Shown: piece after piece, positions 14,325 to 25,015 of the stretch
Layout of the letters: every line of letters starts with the position of its first letter
Numbering within the stretch: the first letter of the stretch is position 1
Assembly (NCBI GenBank): GCA_019058275.1
Contig: JAHLVW010000079.1
Span: 1 to 43,764, forward strand
Direction: 5' to 3'
From: Candidatus Heimdallarchaeota archaeon
Lineage (GTDB): Archaea > Asgardarchaeota > Heimdallarchaeia > JABLTI01
Length of the DNA stretch: 43,764 nucleotides
Translations under genes and position numbers: made by a program
The notes under the pieces: generated by a model
What the model was told of the DNA's origin: nothing
Database searches by the model: none
Seen by the model: only the letters and a program-made list of their open reading frames with translations

Positions 14325-16367
14325 TTAATGACGTTTTTTCTTGCATATGAAGACAATGATTACAGAGAGCATTGCAAGACCAGTGAAAATAGCAAATGGA
14401 CCAATTGAAGGTAATCCTTTCGAGAGTGTTGGATTAGTTTGTAGAATTCTTGTACCATTGATATCTGCACCTAAGTAGATGTATCCATTATCAGCCCAAA
14501 TGAAAGTATGATCTCTACCATCGCTATAATTACCAATTAACTTTGGATGACCAATAATAGTAGCATCAAAGACATCAAAACGTTGGCTATTATCTAGCAT
14601 ATAGATGTATGAGTCTTCTACAAAAATATCAACTGGATCAACCCAAGTAAAGAATTGACCAACTTTTACTGGTTCAAGCAAATCAGTTGTTATGTCAATG
14701 ATATCAAATCCTTCACCAGCAGAAATTACATAAGCATATTCTTCTTCTAAATGAATGCTAATGTAGTCAGCACTAAGTCGTGTCCAATTACTGTATGGTT
14801 CAGGATTATATGGATTAGTCATGTCTACAACATGGAAGTATTCGCCAGCAGCTAGGTAGAGATAATTTTCAGCATAAGCTAAATCCCAAACATCAGGTAT
14901 CTCATCAAAAGCTAAAGCAAATTGTGGATATTCTGGATAGAAGATATCAACTACACCAAAACCATCTACACCTAATCCCACGTAGGCATAGTCATCTGAA
15001 ACACAAAGACCTTCTATAGGTCCGTTGTAAGATACATTACCTAGTTCAATTGGGTTCGTTGGATCAGAGACATCTATAATTTTCAAGTAAGTTGCTACAA
15101 ACATGTCAACTTCTAGGATGTAAGCATAGTCATCTTTAACAACTACATCATAAATTGGGTAATCAAAATTATCAAAGAATTGCCCAACTTCGACAGGATT
15201 TTCTGGGTCAGAGATATCAACGATTTCAAGATTGTAAATATCAGCAATGTAAGCATAATCGTCATCAATGAAGAAACCCCAAGAAAAACCAGCAATTTGA
15301 TCTAACCAAAGTCTGTTCATATTCATTGGGTCAGTTGCATTGATTGCTTCAATGGAATGTATGTTATAAACATAAACTTCATTGCCATTGACTAATAAAT
15401 CGTCCATTTTTAGTGAATTGAGATATTGTGAGTAGTATAATACATTGGTTTTATTACTTACATCTACAACGATCAGTCGGTCGCCTTCTTCTACGTAAAG
15501 ATAATCACCTTGTACAAAGATGTTGTTTGGACCAGTATTATTGAACGCATAGAGATCAGTTTGACTACCTACACCAGTTTTAGTTGTCCAATTCCAAACA
15601 TAAACGAAGTCTTCACTATTGAAATAGATATAATTGTCAGCATAAAAGACATCTCTTGTATTAGCAAGAAGAATACTAAACAATTGCTGTGGAGCTACAG
15701 TAGTATCTGTAATATTAATAATTCGAACTCTATCAGAATCAACAACAAAAGAGTATCCGCTATCAACTTGGAATTCACGCAGACCACCATTAAAATATCC
15801 ACCATTATACAATGGATTTTGATAAGTTGTTACATTGATACAATGGAATCCTAAATCATCTGTATAATAAACAAAATTACCTTGTCCATATATATCATAA
15901 ATTGTAATGCCAATTGAATAGTTACAAACCATATTTATACTGCTGAAATTTGTTGCATCTAGTATTTTAAAACCAGTTGCATTTGCTACGTAAATCAGAT
16001 TTCCACTAGCATAGATTCGATTACATTCATCTTCTTCCCAGGTTGTAATAACTTCTGGACCTTCAAGACTTGAAATGTTTAACACAAGGAATCCATCAAG
16101 ACCAAGTGCTAAATAAGCAAGATCTCCGTCGAAAACTACTTCGCTAATTTCTCCGTAGTTATCATCCCAAAAACCTAATTCAGTTATATTTACTGAATCT
16201 AACGGTTTTTTAGCATTAGCTACCAAATCATTTTTGCTATCTTCATTTGTTGCACCAGCAAGTAACCTAATTTGGTCTGATATAAAAAAGGGAGAAACAA
16301 AAGCAAATACTAAAATGATAGCTATCAATTTATTTTTTCGGCTTCGCAATAGATTATTCCTATTCAT
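14325..16367 (-). CDS. LVIVD-repeat surface protein with signal peptide and C-terminal membrane anchor (paralog 1)
   Basis: Many YAY.A...LEIVDISDPENP-type repeats, N-terminal basic plus hydrophobic leader, C-terminal GPFAIF-TM-KKK tail, many NxS/T sequons. Confidence 0.93.
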   Translation of the reverse strand: MNRNNLLRSRKNKLIAIILVFAFVSPFFISDQIRLLAGATNEDSKNDLVANAKKPLDSVNITELGFWDDNYGEISEVVFDGDLAYLALGLDGFLVLNISSLEGPEVITTWEEDECNRIYASGNLIYVANATGFKILDATNFSSINMVCNYSIGITIYDIYGQGNFVYYTDDLGFHCINVTTYQNPLYNGGYFNGGLREFQVDSGYSFVVDSDRVRIINITDTTVAPQQLFSILLANTRDVFYADNYIYFNSEDFVYVWNWTTKTGVGSQTDLYAFNNTGPNNIFVQGDYLYVEEGDRLIVVDVSNKTNVLYYSQYLNSLKMDDLLVNGNEVYVYNIHSIEAINATDPMNMNRLWLDQIAGFSWGFFIDDDYAYIADIYNLEIVDISDPENPVEVGQFFDNFDYPIYDVVVKDDYAYILEVDMFVATYLKIIDVSDPTNPIELGNVSYNGPIEGLCVSDDYAYVGLGVDGFGVVDIFYPEYPQFALAFDEIPDVWDLAYAENYLYLAAGEYFHVVDMTNPYNPEPYSNWTRLSADYISIHLEEEYAYVISAGEGFDIIDITTDLLEPVKVGQFFTWVDPVDIFVEDSYIYMLDNSQRFDVFDATIIGHPKLIGNYSDGRDHTFIWADNGYIYLGADINGTRILQTNPTLSKGLPSIGPFAIFTGLAMLSVIIVFICKKKRH

Positions 16368-16541: not shown

Positions 16542-18575
16542 TTAACGACACTTTTTCTTTCGTATAAAGATGATGAGCACTGAGAGCATTGTTAGACCAG
16601 CAAAGATTGCAAATGGTCCTAAGAATGGTAGTTTAGCACTTAATGTTGGATCAGTCATCAATATTCGAGTTCCATTAACACCTTCTGCTAAGTAGATGTA
16701 ACTATTGTGTACACTGATGCCAAAGTGAGCATTGCCGTCATCAAAGTTTCCAATCAACTTTGGATGATTTATGTATGTTAAGTCAAAAACATCTAAACCT
16801 TCTGCAGCATCTAACATATAAACGAATCTTCCTTCAACAAAGATATCAATAGGAACCTTCCAAGTAAAGTATTGACCTATTTTAACAGGATTTTCTTTGT
16901 CAATTATATCAATGACATCGAATCCTTCCCAGGACATTACGAAAGCATAATCTTCTGTAACATGCATATCCATGTATACAGCATTTGGTCTTGTCCAGTT
17001 GCTTAGTTCTTCTGGATTGAATGGATTAGTTAAGTCAATAACATGGAAGTAATCCAAAGCTGCAAGTAAAAGATAAGTGTCAACCATTGCTGCACTGAAT
17101 ATTACTGGAACTTCGTGATAAATCATTGTCAATTGAGGATAGTCAGGGTAGTAAATGTCAATAATTGCTAAACCATCACCAGCAAGTGATACAAAAGCAA
17201 ACTCTTCGGTTACAAAGAGATCCCACATACCAAATCCAATCAAAGATATATTACCCATTTCAGTTATATTTGTAGGATCAGAAACATCTAGGATTTTTAG
17301 ACCAAATCCTGCTTCAAGAATGTAAGCATAATCATCCTTAACATTAACTTGGATGATATTTCCACCATCATCGAAGAATTTACCAATTTTTACTGGATTA
17401 GCAGGATCGCTTATGTCTAGAATTTCTAAGTTTGAAGTATCTGCAACGTAAGCGTAAGATCCATCGATAAAGAATCCAACAGTTTGACCATAAATTTGGT
17501 CGAACCACAGAATTACTAAGTTCATTGTATCTGCAGCATCTATAATCTCAAAAGTATAGGTATCATAAGCAAAAACAATATCTCCATCTACTATTATATC
17601 ATTGATGAAGAAATTATTATCAAACATCGAGTGGTATTGTACATTAGTTTTATTACTAATATCAACTAGTACTATATCATCTCCTTCCTCAATGTAAAGA
17701 TAGTTGCCAGCAACCTGGATGTCATTTATACCTGTATTATTAATATCATAAATATCAGTATTCACTGGTACTGCTAGTCTATCTGTAAAGTTGAAAAGCC
17801 ATACGTTGTCAGCATTTGCCACATAAATGTAGTTATTGGCATAGTAGAAATCATTCATATTTGGTACTTGAATGAAGTACATATAATCGATATTTGTAGG
17901 ATCAGTTACATTAAACACCTGACATTGATCATTATCTGTTTGAACGTAAGCCCATCTTTCATCTATTTTGACTTCTATTTGGAGTTCATAATAGTCAGTG
18001 TCTTGATAATGGTCTACATATGATGGATTTAGTAAATCGCTTATATTGTAGATATAAAATCTATCATTTCTTGTATAATAGACAAGATCACTTTGTCCGT
18101 AGATATCTCTTACTTGAGATGCTGACCAATTAGTAGCTAAATTAAGATTATTAATATCACTAGCATCTAAAACATAAATGGCTGAGTTATTTGAACAATA
18201 GATATAGTTTCCAGCAGCATAGATGTAATTGCAAGTGTAATCATCCCAAGAAGTTTCAATAACTGGGATAGATGCATTTGTTACATCATAGATTAACAAT
18301 CCTTCAGCTCCTAAAGCAAGGTAAGCGTAGTTCCCGACAACCGAGACATCATTTATTTGTCCGTAATTGTCGTCCCAATAACCAATTTCAGTAATATTTA
18401 CTGTGTCTAATGGTTTCTTGGCATTAATTGACAACCCATTATTATTTTCCTCTTCAGATATACCTGCTAGCATTCTAACTTGATCTGAAACTAAAAACGG
18501 TAGTAGAAAAGTAATAATGAATATGAAAGCAATTATTTTAGTTTTTCGGCTTCTTAATAGATTATTTTTTCTCAT
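16542..18575 (-). CDS. LVIVD-repeat surface protein with signal peptide and C-terminal membrane anchor (paralog 2)
   Basis: Colinear with 14325-16367 (M.{2}NNLLRSRK, NAKKPLD.VNITE.G.WDDNYG, GPFAIF.GL.MLSV); tandem duplicate. Confidence 0.93.
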   Translation of the reverse strand: MRKNNLLRSRKTKIIAFIFIITFLLPFLVSDQVRMLAGISEEENNNGLSINAKKPLDTVNITEIGYWDDNYGQINDVSVVGNYAYLALGAEGLLIYDVTNASIPVIETSWDDYTCNYIYAAGNYIYCSNNSAIYVLDASDINNLNLATNWSASQVRDIYGQSDLVYYTRNDRFYIYNISDLLNPSYVDHYQDTDYYELQIEVKIDERWAYVQTDNDQCQVFNVTDPTNIDYMYFIQVPNMNDFYYANNYIYVANADNVWLFNFTDRLAVPVNTDIYDINNTGINDIQVAGNYLYIEEGDDIVLVDISNKTNVQYHSMFDNNFFINDIIVDGDIVFAYDTYTFEIIDAADTMNLVILWFDQIYGQTVGFFIDGSYAYVADTSNLEILDISDPANPVKIGKFFDDGGNIIQVNVKDDYAYILEAGFGLKILDVSDPTNITEMGNISLIGFGMWDLFVTEEFAFVSLAGDGLAIIDIYYPDYPQLTMIYHEVPVIFSAAMVDTYLLLAALDYFHVIDLTNPFNPEELSNWTRPNAVYMDMHVTEDYAFVMSWEGFDVIDIIDKENPVKIGQYFTWKVPIDIFVEGRFVYMLDAAEGLDVFDLTYINHPKLIGNFDDGNAHFGISVHNSYIYLAEGVNGTRILMTDPTLSAKLPFLGPFAIFAGLTMLSVLIIFIRKKKCR

Positions 18576-19121: not shown

Positions 19122-20156
19122 TTAATGCCGGCTTCTAATTTTAGGATAAGCTTGAAATGGTGTTCTTGGTTCAGTACTTATCCAATCACCAGACTCATCT
19201 ATTTTTGATAGCGAATTCAACAGATCATATGTTATCCAACGAGTTGCTTGCGGTTTTGGTTGATACTCCCATAATCCATAATTACCTTGTAATTCAAGTA
19301 TGAATTTTACTAATTCAGATACTCTTTCATCTTCTAAAGTTGCTCCTACTTTCCAACATAAATCTAACATAAAGGACAAGTCGTAACGAGCAAAGTACGT
19401 AATAAAACCAGTTGCTTGTTCTATACCCATTGTTCTGGCAACCTCAAATCCTATTGTATATTGTTCTTTGGTACCTCTACCAAGCAGTAGATCTAGTGCT
19501 TTTCTTGCTTCATCTGAATTTTGATGTTTTGGATGAAGTGCTAAACAGCTGAGAGCTCCAGATGTGTTTGAACGGCAACCCCATCTTGAATGGGCAATTT
19601 TCCTGTACCCAGCAACATAACCAAAATTACCCTTTACAATACCAGTTGGCCAAGCACCATCAGACATCCGTTGTACTAGAAGCCATTCAAAAGCTTTCTC
19701 AGCTCTTGAATCTGTAGCATAACCACACATGGCTACACCTCGCAAAGGTATCGCTGTTTGTAAGGTCATAATTTCGTAACCATCACGCTCTAATTGCTTC
19801 TCTCTAATTTTAGGTAATGCCCATGAACCATCATCTCTTTGCAAGGAAAACAAATATTCAGCTCCTTTCTTCACTGCTGGAAAATCAGATGTAAAACCAA
19901 GATAGCCTAACCTAACTAGCGCTTGTGCTGTTGCGAATACTTTAGTGCTATGAGCACCACCAACAAAATCACCCTTTTCCCAAATTCCCACTTTAGATTG
20001 CAATTTAAGAAGATTGGCAATAAAGGGATCTTCCTTGCGGATGTTTTGTAATTCCTTAACTTCAGAATCGTTTTCAGTATGATTAAGCAAATTCTTCATT
20101 ACTAGATATCTAAGGTTTGGTGATTGGTCTGCAAGTAAAAGAGGAACCCAAGTCAT
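19122..20156 (-). CDS. Prenyltransferase/squalene-cyclase-like (QW-repeat alpha/alpha barrel) protein
   Basis: Repeats LQSKVGIW, LQRDDGSW, QRMSDGAW, LQGNYGLW; no DxDD cyclase motif; ATGA overlap with the upstream double UvrA. Confidence 0.8.
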   Translation of the reverse strand: MTWVPLLLADQSPNLRYLVMKNLLNHTENDSEVKELQNIRKEDPFIANLLKLQSKVGIWEKGDFVGGAHSTKVFATAQALVRLGYLGFTSDFPAVKKGAEYLFSLQRDDGSWALPKIREKQLERDGYEIMTLQTAIPLRGVAMCGYATDSRAEKAFEWLLVQRMSDGAWPTGIVKGNFGYVAGYRKIAHSRWGCRSNTSGALSCLALHPKHQNSDEARKALDLLLGRGTKEQYTIGFEVARTMGIEQATGFITYFARYDLSFMLDLCWKVGATLEDERVSELVKFILELQGNYGLWEYQPKPQATRWITYDLLNSLSKIDESGDWISTEPRTPFQAYPKIRSRH

Positions 20157-23100
20157 TTGTAAAACTCCAATATTTCTTTAATAAAGGGAGCAGTTGGTGT
20201 CTTTCCATTAGCAATTTGCTCAGGAGTACCACTTGCAACAACTTTCCCTCCTTCAGGACCACCACCAGGTCCTAATTCAATTAACCAATCACATGAAGCT
20301 AAGAGCTCAGGACTGTGTTCGATAACTATAATAGAATGACCATCATCTACGAGTTTATGTAGTATTTTTGCAAAACGACTAATGTCATCTAAATGCTGAC
20401 CTACAGTAGGTTCATCAAGAATGTACATTGTTTGTGGTTTTGTTTTCTTACTCAATTCTAAAGCTATTTTTAGTCTCTGAGCTTCACCACCAGATAATGA
20501 ATAGCCTGGTTGACGCAACACAAGATATCCTAATCCAACATCTATTGCAATCTTTAATTTTCTAGCAATTTTTTCTTCATCTTTGAATAACTCATAGACT
20601 TGATTTATTGTTAATTGATATAATTCTGGGAGTGTATATCCTTTAAGTCGAATATCCCATACTTCAGCTATATGTCCAGAACCTTTACAAGTATCGCAAG
20701 GAGTTCGTATTGAAGGCAAGAAGCCCATATTAGTATAAATTCTTCCACGTCCTAGACAAACAGAACACCTTTTAGTTAGTTGACTTTCTTTTATACCTAA
20801 TACTTGAGCATCCTCACTTTCAGCATACAACTTTGTAATTGGTTTTGTCAAACCCAAGTAATGTAATGGATTATAGATTCCGCGTCTTGATTGATCCAAT
20901 ATAATCATTCTTTCGGGCGCATCAACAATTTCTTTATGTTCTCCAGGTTCAATTGGTTCATAAGCAACAGAAGTTGTTTGTTTTCTTGGAACTAACTTAC
21001 GACCAAGTGTATCAATTAGTAAAGTGCTTTTACCAGAACCAGATACACCACATAATCCTGTTAAAACACCAAGTGGGATTCTAACTTCCTCTCCTTTGAG
21101 GTTATATGCAACTGCCCCGAGAATTTTCATCCAATTTAGAGGCTTTCTTCTTATCTTTCTATAATTGAATTTTTTATCTCCTTGCAACCATTGAGTTGTT
21201 AATGTGGATTTTTCTAGAACATCTCTTAATGTACCTTGTGCTACAATTTTCCCTCCAGTAATTCCAGGTCCAGGACCCATATCTAACAAGTAATCAGCAT
21301 TACGAATAATTATTGGATCATGTTCCACAATTATGACAGTGTTACCTTCCTGACACAATTCTTGAAGAGCTTCGATTAAGGAATTTACTTCTGAAGGATG
21401 AAGTCCTCGTGATGGCTCATCAAGAAGAATAGTTAGTGATGTTAAACCACTCACTAAAAGACCAGCTAGTTTCACTCTTTGTGCTTCACCAGCTGATAAT
21501 GTTGCATAAATCCTATTCAAATGAATATAACCTAGTCCAACTTGTTTCAAAAAATCTAATCGTTTTAGAATAGTATCCAGATTAGCTTTTATCATCTTTG
21601 GAATTGCTGTTGGAATTTTTACTTTAACTAAAGTACTAGCTAATTTCTTCAAAGGCATTTCTTTAAAATCATGAATATTGAAGCCATTTATCCTAACGTT
21701 TAGATATTGTGGTTTAAGACGACCTCCCTTACAGTCAGGACATATTTCAGTCTCAGTATATGTTCCACCTACATCCCATTCACCCATCCAACCATAAAGC
21801 CCTCTAAATCTCATTTTGAAAGTTCGTCTATGCCCTTTTCTACCAATGGAGTGAACTTCTAGGGGTTCTGAATCACCGAAAAGAAAAGCTTGTTGTGCTT
21901 CACTTGGCATCTCATTCCAAGGTGTAGTTTTAGGATCAAAATTGTATCTTTTAGCAAGTGACTGAATGATGTAATATCCACCATTAAATTCCTTGCAAAT
22001 ATAGCCACAAGGAAAGAATCCAGGAGAATACATACCTCCAGAACAAATCGGTTTCTCAGGTTTAATTATTAATTTTTCAGGACATGGTTTTCTTAAACTA
22101 CCAACTCCATTGCATTTATTGCAAGCAGCTGCATAATTGACAGGAGAGAAGTGTCTTACTTTAGCTACTGGTTCTTTTGATTTGCAAGAGGGACAGATCC
22201 AGTGGTCTCCCTTTAACATTTCGACTTTACATTTCTCACATTCTTTCTTTCCAATATTAGCAAATAAAACAGCTAAGTGATAAGAAATCTCAGTTTCAAT
22301 ACCAACAGTGTTTCTAAGATTATAACGACCACTATCTGGTTTGACAGAAATTGTTACACCTAGTCCTATAACAGTATCTACAGGAGCTTCCGGACCCTCT
22401 CTTGTACTTTGCCTTTCATAAAGGGTTAATGTTTCAAGAAACCTTCTTCTAGCCTCAGTCTCGAGTATATCGCTAACTAGACTAGATTTCCCAGAACCAG
22501 AAACACCAGTTACAACTGTGAGTTTATTTTTTTGAAAGTCGACATCTACATTTTGGAGATTATGGATATTTGCACCTCGAATGGAAATAACATTCTGTAG
22601 TTTATAATCACTTTTCTTTTCAACTCTATCTGGATGAATAACTTCCTCTTCTTTCAATAATTGACCTGTAATTGATTTCTTACTATCCAAAAGATCATTT
22701 ACAGATCCTGTGAAGACAAGATTCCCACCCTTTTCTCCTGCACCAGGTCCAAGATCAATAATCCAATCAGCAGCTTTAATTATATCGGAATTATGTTCAA
22801 CAACAACAATAGTACCCCCAGAACGAACTAGATAATCTAGAACATTTAACAATCCAGTTATATCATAAGGATGCAATCCTGTGGATGGCTCATCTAAGAT
22901 AATTAATCTTCCACTTAAAGAGGCTCTACCAAGATACTTTGCTAATTTGACTCTTTGAGCTTCTCCACCAGATATTGTAGTTGAAGGTTGACCCAAAGGC
23001 AAATAACCTAAACCAACGTCATGCATTGCTTTTAGTATTCTGCAGGCTGCTTTGCGGTTTTTCTCTGTCAATTTCATTTCTTTCTCTAATATATCAAATG

Positions 23101-25015
23101 CTTGTGAAACATCCAATCTATAGAAGTCAGCTATTGAGTAAGTTTCACCATTGAAATTAGCTTTAGCTGCTAAAACTTCATCCGAAAACCGTTCACCACT
23201 ACAACTCGAACAAGTAATCCATGTAGAAGGAAGGTATCTCATTTTTACTTCTAAAGCACCAATTCCTTTACATTCTTGACAAGCACCCTCAGGACGATTA
23301 AAGGAGAAATGAGATGCTGACAGACCCGTTTCAGCAGCAAATATTTCACGTATAATATCAGAGAGCTTTGTATATGTTGCAGGATTTGATCTAGGGTTTC
23401 TTCCTATAGGACTTTGATCTACTATTACAGTTTTTAGCATGGGACCGATGATTTCTTTACAACCAACTGGCTTTTTCTTTGATAACGAAGTAACTAACAC
23501 TTCTTCAACAAAAGTACTTTTACCAGATCCCGAAACACCAGTAATAACTGATAAACAATTAATTGGTATTGTTACATCTATATCCTTTAGTGTTCGAAAG
23601 CTTACACCCTTGAAAATTAAGAACTCATCTGGTTGGTCTCTTAAAGTAGGGATTTTTACTCTATCTCTTAAGCTAAAATATCTACCTGTGTAAGTATCAC
23701 TTCGCCATAATTCGTTTATTTTCCCTGAGTAGACTATTTCTCCGCCTTTGTTTCCAGCAGCTGGACCAATATCTATAGCATAATCTGCTTGTACTGCAGC
23801 CATTCTATCATGTTCAACGAAAATAACTGGTCCCTTTAACTTCCTTAAAATCGGCAGGAAGTTCTTAACATCTGCTATATGTTGTCCAATTGTTGGTTCA
23901 TCAAGTACATAGAGCATGTCCTCAAGACGACTTGATATTGCTACTGCAAGTCGAACACGTTGAGATTCTCCTCGAGATAAAGTTGGTGAAGAGCGATTTA
24001 ATGAAATATAACCCAAACCAACTCTTTCTAAAGAATTAATTCTTTTCAAAATTTCTTGGACTAACCTATTTGCTGTAGAGGGCAAATCTGGTTCATCAAA
24101 CAATTGTTTAACTTCGCTAACTGTTTTAGCTAATAGTTCTGTTAAATTTAGATTCTTCCAATATACAGGTACAGCTTTAGGATGAAGACCAGTTTCCTTA
24201 CATTTTTCACAACCTTTCCCTTTGCAATAAGGACAAGATGTGTGAAAGTGTAATGGTTCTATCTCTCCCAACCAAGTATTGCAAACTATACAAACAGTAG
24301 TTTTTGAAAAAGTTAAATCATAATCATTGAACTTAACTTTTAGCGCATATGAACCTAGTGCGGTAATATCCTCTAGTACCTTACGAAATTCCTTAATGCT
24401 TGTTTTCTTATCATAAACACCAATTAGAAGATCGATATTGTGTTTCTTACTTGAATCTAACTTTTGCTCTTCCCAAGATTCACCATCAATTATAATATCT
24501 TTAGGATCAAATGCCTTTTTCAACATACTTAGAAATGTTCGATGACTACCGATGGTATTTTGTACCAAAGGAGCGAAAATAGAGATTTTATTCGTTTTAT
24601 TGATTAATAAGATGCGATCAATTATTTCATCTTCTTTTAAAACAGTGTTTTTAGCACCACATTTTGAACACCTTCTTTCACCAAGATTTGCATAAAGTAA
24701 CCGTAAAAATGGGTGAAGACCAGAAGCTGTTGCTAAAGTGGAAAGAGGGTTGCGATTAAGTAGATTTTGACCAACAGCAATAGTTGGTCCTGCACCAGTC
24801 AAGCTTTGTACTTTTGCTGGTAACAATCTAAGACTTGAATTTCTTGTTGAAAAAATATCTAAAAAGCGTCTTCTTGCTTCATGATAAAGGGTATCAAAAA
24901 CTAGAGATGTTTTCCCAGATCCAGAGATGCCTGTGACAACTGTAAGACCATCTGATATATCGACATCGATATTTTGAAGATTATTTTCTCTGGCACCTCG
25001 GATTTTTATGTTCAT
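20153..25015 (-). CDS. Double-length UvrA-like protein (two fused UvrA modules, four ABC ATPase domains)
   Basis: Four Walker A motifs (GISGSGKT, 3x GVSGSGKS), four signatures (LSRGESQR, ISGGEAQR, LSAGEAQR, LSGGEAQR), four LDEP Walker B motifs and multiple CxxC pairs. The second module starts near 22595 (ISIRGANIHNLQNVDV). Confidence 0.95.
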   Translation of the reverse strand: MNIKIRGARENNLQNIDVDISDGLTVVTGISGSGKTSLVFDTLYHEARRRFLDIFSTRNSSLRLLPAKVQSLTGAGPTIAVGQNLLNRNPLSTLATASGLHPFLRLLYANLGERRCSKCGAKNTVLKEDEIIDRILLINKTNKISIFAPLVQNTIGSHRTFLSMLKKAFDPKDIIIDGESWEEQKLDSSKKHNIDLLIGVYDKKTSIKEFRKVLEDITALGSYALKVKFNDYDLTFSKTTVCIVCNTWLGEIEPLHFHTSCPYCKGKGCEKCKETGLHPKAVPVYWKNLNLTELLAKTVSEVKQLFDEPDLPSTANRLVQEILKRINSLERVGLGYISLNRSSPTLSRGESQRVRLAVAISSRLEDMLYVLDEPTIGQHIADVKNFLPILRKLKGPVIFVEHDRMAAVQADYAIDIGPAAGNKGGEIVYSGKINELWRSDTYTGRYFSLRDRVKIPTLRDQPDEFLIFKGVSFRTLKDIDVTIPINCLSVITGVSGSGKSTFVEEVLVTSLSKKKPVGCKEIIGPMLKTVIVDQSPIGRNPRSNPATYTKLSDIIREIFAAETGLSASHFSFNRPEGACQECKGIGALEVKMRYLPSTWITCSSCSGERFSDEVLAAKANFNGETYSIADFYRLDVSQAFDILEKEMKLTEKNRKAACRILKAMHDVGLGYLPLGQPSTTISGGEAQRVKLAKYLGRASLSGRLIILDEPSTGLHPYDITGLLNVLDYLVRSGGTIVVVEHNSDIIKAADWIIDLGPGAGEKGGNLVFTGSVNDLLDSKKSITGQLLKEEEVIHPDRVEKKSDYKLQNVISIRGANIHNLQNVDVDFQKNKLTVVTGVSGSGKSSLVSDILETEARRRFLETLTLYERQSTREGPEAPVDTVIGLGVTISVKPDSGRYNLRNTVGIETEISYHLAVLFANIGKKECEKCKVEMLKGDHWICPSCKSKEPVAKVRHFSPVNYAAACNKCNGVGSLRKPCPEKLIIKPEKPICSGGMYSPGFFPCGYICKEFNGGYYIIQSLAKRYNFDPKTTPWNEMPSEAQQAFLFGDSEPLEVHSIGRKGHRRTFKMRFRGLYGWMGEWDVGGTYTETEICPDCKGGRLKPQYLNVRINGFNIHDFKEMPLKKLASTLVKVKIPTAIPKMIKANLDTILKRLDFLKQVGLGYIHLNRIYATLSAGEAQRVKLAGLLVSGLTSLTILLDEPSRGLHPSEVNSLIEALQELCQEGNTVIIVEHDPIIIRNADYLLDMGPGPGITGGKIVAQGTLRDVLEKSTLTTQWLQGDKKFNYRKIRRKPLNWMKILGAVAYNLKGEEVRIPLGVLTGLCGVSGSGKSTLLIDTLGRKLVPRKQTTSVAYEPIEPGEHKEIVDAPERMIILDQSRRGIYNPLHYLGLTKPITKLYAESEDAQVLGIKESQLTKRCSVCLGRGRIYTNMGFLPSIRTPCDTCKGSGHIAEVWDIRLKGYTLPELYQLTINQVYELFKDEEKIARKLKIAIDVGLGYLVLRQPGYSLSGGEAQRLKIALELSKKTKPQTMYILDEPTVGQHLDDISRFAKILHKLVDDGHSIIVIEHSPELLASCDWLIELGPGGGPEGGKVVASGTPEQIANGKTPTAPFIKEILEFYK

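Follow-up and report, generated by a model that had tools for sequence, protein, structure and literature searches.

Class IIa UvrA proteins such as DrrC and Ecm16, which lack a UvrB-binding domain (UBD) as well as zinc module 1 (Zn1), provide drug resistance without UvrB and UvrC (PMC9328131). In Ecm16 the insertion domain (ID) is required for DNA binding and its sequence sets the substrate specificity, the exact sequence coupling the cognate drug-DNA complex to ATP hydrolysis (PMC10192343). In the UvrA2-DNA complex of M. tuberculosis, one ID, the 'recognition ID', accommodates the flipped-out lesion in a hydrophobic pocket, and a 'support ID' is released once UvrB binds the UBD of the same protomer (PMC11985968). 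Here we describe a two-gene module on contig JAHLVW010000079.1 of a Candidatus Heimdallarchaeota archaeon (assembly GCA_019058275.1), in which a single-chain double UvrA with one ID and one UBD-type domain is paired with a small toroid protein. To our knowledge, every UvrB-independent UvrA paralogue known so far is a lone homodimer. Searches of the literature for the pair and for the UvrA classes gave no description of the pair, and the two-gene UvrA-toroid module is apparently undescribed.

The window, i.e. the whole stretch of 43,764 nucleotides that was analyzed (contig C74 in our numbering), belongs to a metagenome bin of 4.1 Mb (33% G+C, 93% complete, 7% contaminated), whose nearest named relatives are the Heimdallarchaeota. 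The module lies on the minus strand and has the following parts (NBD, nucleotide-binding domain; aa, amino acids):

20153-25015, minus strand: single-chain double UvrA (P0001, 1620 aa), with four ABC ATPase modules and six zinc knuckles
22616-25015, minus strand: half 1 (aa 1-800), with NBD1, Zn1, a UvrB-binding-type domain and NBD2, the ID missing (alignment to solved UvrAs)
24296-24655, minus strand: UvrB-binding-type domain of half 1 (aa 121-240; Pfam UvrA_inter)
24200-24235, minus strand: CxxC-x4-CxxC knuckle (aa 261-272) at the place where the ID of half 1 is expected, its cysteines nearly invariant
20156-22600, minus strand: half 2 (aa 806-1620), with NBD3, ID and NBD4, the UBD missing (alignment to T. 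maritima UvrA)
22184-22240, minus strand: CxxC-x11-CxxC knuckle (aa 926-944) at the place where the UBD of half 2 is expected, with C926, C929, C941 and C944 invariant
21731-22123, minus strand: sole ID (aa 965-1095), with the motif GAMYSPGFFPxGYxCKxYNGGYY (Pfam UvrA_DNA-bind)
20165-20168, minus strand: GGAG Shine-Dalgarno-like motif, seen in the sequence inside the 3' end of the UvrA gene, 8 nt before the partner ATG
19122-20156, minus strand: QW-repeat (alpha/alpha)6 toroid partner (P0002, 344 aa; Pfam and structure model)

Half 1 aligns with the UvrAs of M. tuberculosis and G. stearothermophilus over the N-terminal ATP-binding region and the UBD, after which the ID is skipped. Half 2 aligns with T. 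maritima UvrA over residues 2-125, jumps to residue 247 and continues across the ID to the end. Against these solved UvrAs the domain losses are complementary, half 1 having a UBD and no ID and half 2 an ID and no UBD, and at each missing domain the two flanking CxxC pairs persist as a compact knuckle. The UBD-type domain itself is flanked by C116/C119 and C242/C245. Pfam places UvrA_inter at aa 129-202 and UvrA_DNA-bind at aa 1014-1077 of P0001; the UvrA_inter match has E-values of 7e-8 to 6e-9, and the Bathyarchaeia orthologues match too. TIGR00630 matches P0001 twice over (1381 bits in 5 stretches), with no single stretch reaching the cut-off in the genome search. An earlier note on this DNA, made from the sequence alone, had taken class II UvrAs as its model; the protein is not of that class, since half 1 keeps the UvrA_inter domain and only half 2 is without a UBD. 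A match to mad3 in PADLOC (E 5e-120) was also set aside as summed ABC-ATPase similarity, MAD3 being an OLD-type ATPase.

Residue invariance was assessed in 22 orthologues of the double UvrA. The Walker A, Walker B, signature and H-loop motifs of all four sites are invariant or nearly so, as are the 24 cysteines of the six zinc modules, and signatures 1 and 3 read LSRGE and LSAGE without exception. Conservation, profiled residue by residue over 40 orthologues (whole-protein mean 0.69), is highest, outside the ATPase motifs, in the ID core (aa 981-1020, 0.84-0.87) and lowest in the UBD-type domain (aa 121-240, 0.43-0.57), where indels occur as well. The wedge residue Y323 of M. tuberculosis UvrA aligns with F1010, a position at which the family consensus is Y ('CKPYNGGYY'), and in the UBD-type domain a family-invariant GSH is aligned with KGE of M. 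tuberculosis UvrA. In P0001, two UvrA units are joined covalently into an asymmetric 'dimer' whose four ATPase sites are all intact and which has a single ID and a single UBD-type domain. The hyper-conservation of the single ID from archaea to bacteria argues for one specific, shared substrate.

The TGA of the UvrA gene (20155-20153) overlaps the ATG of the partner gene (20156-20154) as ATGA, just as the earlier note had read it at 20153-20156, and open reading frames (ORFs) of 1620 and 344 aa are present. A GGAGG-type motif stands at the same distance from the partner start in the 16 archaeal and bacterial orthologous loci inspected, and the recurrence of overlap and motif makes translational coupling a conserved feature. 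A one-genome-per-species scan gave 168 relatives, from which 80 loci were fetched. Most of these loci carry a double-UvrA frame of ~1600-1755 aa directly upstream of the toroid gene on the same strand, the commonest spacing (stop-end minus start = 3) being the 4-bp ATGA overlap; in all three annotated contigs, which come from a Bathyarchaeota chromosome and from one Anaerolineae and one syntenic archaeal bin, the UvrA-type gene overlaps the toroid gene. Most apparent exceptions retain the UvrA, which is frameshifted in several bins labelled Chloroflexia, or lies upstream at 0.2-2.8 kb, separated by unrelated genes. The conservation of the pairing, a check proposed in the earlier note, extends over several phyla: the module is found in Heimdall-, Prometh-, Thor- and Hermodarchaeota, Bathyarchaeia, Chloroflexota (Anaerolineae, Caldilineaceae and Thermoflexales), Aminicenantes, one Spirochaetales bin and one 'Patescibacteria' bin, with 55-60% identity between archaeal and bacterial copies.

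At the genome level, the partner and a family-specific ID segment of the double UvrA were sought in 301 Asgard genomes. The partner was found in 69/301 and the ID segment in 68/301; both genes are present in 65/301, the partner only in 4/301, the UvrA only in 3/301, and neither in 229/301. Among the discordant matches, most either are incomplete or fall no more than about 2 kb from the end of a contig. The pairing greatly exceeds what chance would give and looks obligate. In the midpoint-rooted UvrA tree, an Asgard clade and a Chloroflexota clade are recovered and the Bathyarchaeia fall in two places, which suggests mostly vertical descent of the module with a few transfers. Three loci depart from the rule. 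Intact toroids stand beside a truncated UvrA (aa ~1065-1617 or ~1296-1617 remaining) in L046 (CP070784, the Bathyarchaeota chromosome) and L056, and L057, the sole such case among the 80 loci, has an intact toroid with no UvrA within 7 kb upstream; they suggest either decay of the module or an independent role of the toroid. The 556-aa 'short ATPase' beside the toroid in CP070784 is a C-terminal remnant of the double UvrA and not a separate architecture.

Three Anaerolineae loci (L048:2196-4815, L054 and L092:2810-3760) have unrelated genes between double UvrA and toroid that break the overlap; the inserted genes encode a PAS sensor, a response regulator and a 250-aa hydrophobic ORF in L048, and a 316-aa ORF in L092. 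Two candidate natural fusions of UvrA and toroid, P0275 (741 aa) and P0276 (1289 aa), seem to be artefacts of a frameshift at the ATGA overlap. In P0275 about 20 residues between the UvrA and toroid parts match neither protein; P0276 begins mid-UvrA with an ABC-type gene, called separately, immediately upstream, which points to a broken gene call. Co-folding of the first module of half 2 (aa 806-1300, including the ID) with the toroid, both given as alignments, scored 0.00-0.02 against a mark of 0.32, which speaks neither for nor against an interaction.

Ordinary excision repair is encoded elsewhere in the same genome, with a canonical 963-aa UvrA on contig C22, UvrB on C11 and UvrC on C69, so that P0001 is not its only UvrA; on the contig of the window there is no uvrB or uvrC, as the earlier note had remarked. 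A second double UvrA of this genome (C52:10858-16779, 1973 aa) consists of two full-length class-I-like halves that are 47% identical to each other and 42% identical to the canonical UvrA, and no toroid gene lies downstream of it. A UvrA-like stretch on C34 (15593-16771), with TAA stops and its middle missing, is probably a pseudogene remnant. In the Heimdall class uvrB is near-universal (36/41 genomes) and the module is accessory (8/41), and five Asgards of a module-rich genus also have adjacent canonical uvrA-uvrB genes.

The Bathyarchaeia present a different picture. No match to uvrB was obtained in 9/9 module-bearing genomes (threshold E 1e-20), nor to uvrC in 5/5 (threshold E 1e-10). In those five genomes the UvrA family is represented among the matches by the double UvrA alone, except that one genome (G302) also has a 751-aa UvrA without UBD. 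Nine independent misses of uvrB through incompleteness are unlikely. The module therefore probably does not need UvrB or UvrC, in line with the UvrB-independence proposed earlier. The Bathyarchaeia double UvrAs nevertheless score as UvrA_inter across the UBD region despite the absence of a detected uvrB, and a domain retained under such circumstances would then serve something else. The toroid is the only co-inherited candidate for its client.

The toroid partner has four Q..G.W motifs, at residues 53, 106, 162 and 290, and matches SQHop_cyclase_C with 27.7 bits (cut-off 26.1). The DxDD motif is absent from P0002, as had been noted before, and also from 40/40 orthologues checked. Similarity to squalene-hopene cyclase (SHC) is restricted to the structural QW repeats (residues 76-171 against SHC 497-593). 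An AlphaFold model built from a 40-sequence alignment (pLDDT 89, pTM 0.90) has about twelve long helices with hairpins after every second helix. Its structural matches overall have Z 11-15 with root-mean-square deviations of 4-6.6 A over 233-277 residues. They include SHC 1GSZ (Z 15.0, 4.0 A over 244 residues) and, at Z 11-14, drimenyl-diphosphate synthase, complement thioester domains, sugar epimerases, GH76 and LanC. Foldseek and VIA searches with the model returned generic (alpha/alpha)6 toroids only, the best at Z 13-15, with no family prominent. The protein is soluble, with an isoelectric point near neutral in most orthologues. There are more than 2100 clusters of toroid homologues in metagenomes, those listed having 57-84% identity, and the family is tight, with about a dozen full-length representatives left at 50% clustering.

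Seventy-odd positions of the toroid are invariant in the orthologue alignment, and its C-terminal tail (EPRTPF...R) is conserved. Active sites of toroid enzymes lie on the face formed by the N-terminal ends of the inner helices, and by helix topology R185, S190, R191, W192, C194, R195, N197, T198, R241, E246, R257, D259 and R306 are predicted to lie at these ends or just before them. Of four further residues, C144, C204 and H208 are invariant or close to it and C267 almost so; topology would place all four close to where three successive inner helices have their C-terminal ends, and they could form a metal or thiol site. The complement thioester motif is CGEQ near the start of the domain. A thioester reading of the partner's 'GCRSN' (Cys with Asn three residues on) was dropped, the alignment with thioester domains placing such a site near the N-terminus of the partner and not at C194.

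Other members of the toroid family occur in different settings. The distant paralogues examined have about 25-30% identity. One on contig C78 of the same genome has no telling neighbours. Another, P0231, which shares 20-odd % identity with P0002, is translationally coupled to a NifB-like radical S-adenosylmethionine (SAM) protein of 277 aa (L116:3179-5040 and L117:69-1930), another two-gene use of the family; in L116 this pair follows orotate-phosphoribosyltransferase-like, APH-kinase, methyltransferase and NUDIX genes. As clues to the module, neither the NifB-like pairing nor the C78 context is informative.

Clustering of all ORFs neighbouring the pair in the fetched loci gave no third conserved gene. 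The DUF3303-like gene and the methyltransferase gene of the window, put forward in the earlier note as possible members, recur only in its closest relatives (the former in L034, the latter in L034 and L035) and are not part of the module. In Promethearchaeota (L118:1-11475 and L119) the pair belongs to a co-directional string. Ahead of the double UvrA come genes for two BtrH_N/DUF4872 proteins, a SAM methyltransferase and a UBD-less UvrA of 835 aa, and after the toroid one for a 120-aa protein of the glyoxalase/bleomycin-resistance (VOC) family. The VOC gene follows the pair in 10 loci. In the Thorarchaeota locus L074:112-8035, a PadR gene overlaps a BtrH_N/DUF4872 gene by 4 bp, followed after a 120-bp gap by the double UvrA and toroid genes. 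The PadR, bleomycin-resistance-family and UBD-less UvrA neighbours fit a response to xenobiotics or genotoxins, so that the drug-resistance idea of the earlier note has gained circumstantial support from other Asgard lineages. The methyltransferase of the window was rejected as an orthologue of that in the Promethearchaeota operon (27% identity, SAM core only). An actin homologue is encoded 6 kb downstream of the L118/L119 operon.

Our preferred, tentative reading is that the module senses a specific DNA adduct or a compound bound to DNA, independently of UvrBC, with the toroid as its client or effector. The fused UvrA would scan duplex DNA like a UvrA2 dimer and lock onto one kind of distortion, caused by a bulky adduct or by a bound or intercalated compound. 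The single conserved ID would serve permanently as 'recognition ID' and take up the flipped-out lesion. In place of UvrB, the toroid would be the client, probably through the retained UBD-type domain, and would bind, sequester or chemically process the extruded adduct or ligand in a family-specific pocket. The putative pocket would comprise the inner-helix residues named above apart from S190, with a possible Cys3His metal or thiol site at C144, C204, H208 and C267. The likely physiological role would be tolerance of a genotoxic compound or adduct. A narrower proposal, possible but rather unlikely as a whole, is that the toroid replaces UvrB at the UBD and that the fused protein is a hard-wired form of the UvrA2-UvrB1 hand-off, passing an adduct or genotoxin to a toroid that acts as enzyme or sink, possibly with thiol or zinc chemistry by analogy with LanCL.

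Several points weigh against the preferred reading. The tie of the toroid to DNA, ligand or UvrA is deduced from sequence and not from experiment or structure; its isoelectric point is near neutral, and no known nucleic-acid-binding motif was found in its sequence. Its structural matches are generic and suggest no chemistry, and the putative pocket and metal site are derived from helix topology and conservation rather than from coordinates. Conservation within the UvrA is lowest in the very domain proposed for docking, whereas the partner is strongly conserved. For the Bathyarchaeia genomes, which are metagenome bins, no completeness is stated, and absence in them means 'not found'. The PadR, VOC and class-II-like UvrA neighbours are limited to one Asgard clade and are absent from the window.

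The pair might instead be an accessory front end of ordinary excision repair for a special class of lesions, loading one UvrB via the UBD of half 1, with the toroid as a specificity or regulatory subunit. The UvrA_inter score of half 1 would be expected of such a protein, canonical uvrA, uvrB and uvrC are available in the genome that contains the window and canonical uvrA and uvrB in the tested Asgards, and in having a single ID and a single UBD the layout mirrors that of the UvrA2-UvrB1 intermediate (PMC11985968). We nevertheless consider it improbable: the module-bearing Bathyarchaeia keep the UBD-type domain where no uvrB (9/9) or uvrC (5/5) was matched, and the invariant residues of that domain differ from the canonical ones (GSH against KGE in M. 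tuberculosis UvrA). Similarly low is the probability that the toroid serves the UvrA purely as regulator, chaperone or lid, for example gating the ATPase or the DNA groove, with no ligand or chemistry of its own. The translational coupling of the two proteins, the lack of a catalytic motif of any known toroid enzyme and a whole-surface conservation typical of a tight structural subunit would suit such a role. It leaves aside the many invariant polar, Arg and Cys residues that by topology cluster at the inner-helix ends, the active-site place of toroid enzymes, and the intact toroids that persist beside a truncated UvrA (L046, L056) or without a nearby UvrA (L057).

A role in defence against phages or plasmids, raised in the earlier note and here taken as an ABC-ATPase DNA sensor with an effector, appears still less probable. 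A two-gene ABC-ATPase module that is accessory and patchy (8/41 relatives, 69/301 Asgard genomes) and shared by archaea and bacteria alike has the outline of a defence system, but it gained no specific support. In PADLOC-DB 2.0 the partner has no match and the UvrA matches only generic ABC-ATPase models (mad3, mad8, AriA, PtuA and others); neither protein has a nuclease or toxin domain. The module evolves slowly (55-60% identity between archaeal and bacterial copies), its tree is largely lineage-coherent and its neighbours are housekeeping genes and variable, and a PLSDB plasmid search with the toroid returned squalene-hopene cyclase only, with no plasmid match of the toroid itself. That the toroid is an isoprenoid enzyme (a cyclase or prenyltransferase) whose association with UvrA is unrelated to DNA is very improbable. 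The weak similarity to squalene cyclases in Pfam and NCBIfam covers the structural repeats only, DxDD is missing throughout the 40 orthologues, the protein is a single toroid and not a two-domain cyclase, and no isoprenoid genes are conserved nearby.

The window is also syntenic over many genes (kynureninase-like, M3 peptidases, methyltransferase, UvrA, toroid and DUF3303) with L032/L033/L034 (DATKZI010000032.1, labelled Bathyarchaeia). The closest relatives of the window proteins are those on DATKZI010000032.1, so that the taxonomic label of one of the two bins may be wrong. Two tandem LVIVD-repeat beta-propeller proteins of ~680 aa are encoded at 14325-16367 and 16542-18575 on the minus strand of the window; relative to L034, this pair appears inserted between the DUF3303-like gene and an MFS transporter gene.

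The double UvrA form occurs in about a quarter of the sampled Asgard genomes, with a dedicated, co-inherited partner, and its domain losses freeze an asymmetry only recently seen by cryo-electron microscopy in canonical UvrA. This raises the questions of whether one recognition ID and one client-binding domain are the minimal functional UvrA unit, and of what UvrA hands the lesion to when UvrB is absent. The module may bring to light an activity new to the terpene-cyclase fold and, in microbes of anoxic sediments, a new route of genotoxin tolerance. If the hand-off proposal is true, an excision-free clearing of DNA would be common to Asgard archaea, Bathyarchaeia and Chloroflexota.

Among the known systems, class I UvrA (TIGR00630/NF001503; 2R6F, 3PIH, 3ZQJ, 9GA5, 9GXK) has the same types of ABC modules, zinc modules, UBD and ID, and the class I UvrAs of the genome are nearer to each half (35-41% identity) than the halves are to each other (31%). 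Every class I unit has both UBD and ID, whereas here half 1 has lost the ID and half 2 the UBD. Unlike class I UvrA, the double UvrA is a fusion of two units, has a toroid partner instead of UvrB, and occurs in genomes where no uvrB or uvrC was detected. In class IIa UvrAs (DrrC, Ecm16 and D. radiodurans UvrA2; 7SH1, 2VF7) the UBD is lacking as in half 2, and these proteins act without UvrBC, with the ID deciding the substrate (PMC9328131, PMC10192343). Class IIa proteins, however, form homodimers from chains of ~800 aa, have two IDs but no UBD, and lack a dedicated partner, in contrast to the one chain, one ID, one UBD-type domain and seemingly obligate partner of P0001. They also lack zinc module 1, where half 2 keeps the CxxC...CxxC knuckle, and in PDB alignments of P0001 class II scores lower than class I. 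The chlamydial-type long UvrA (NF001885/PRK00635, a 1809-position model) is likewise double-length, and P0001 does not belong to it (857 bits against a cut-off of 3054).

On the side of the partner, class II terpene cyclases (SHC 1GSZ, drimenyl-diphosphate synthase 8ZG0) share the fold and the QW repeats with P0002, but P0002 is a single 344-aa toroid without DxDD and with a family-specific invariant set rich in Arg, Cys and Trp. Complement thioester domains and LanC/LanCL also share the (alpha/alpha)6 toroid fold with it. LanC and the beta subunit of protein prenyltransferase have a Cys/His(/Asp) zinc site in the central cavity. In architecture, a counterpart is the M. tuberculosis UvrA2-UvrB1-DNA intermediate, to which the double UvrA corresponds in having exactly one ID and one UBD, on different halves. 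In M. tuberculosis this asymmetry is transient, arising in a symmetric homodimer with UvrB as the client, whereas here it is fixed by domain loss and the co-inherited protein is the toroid.

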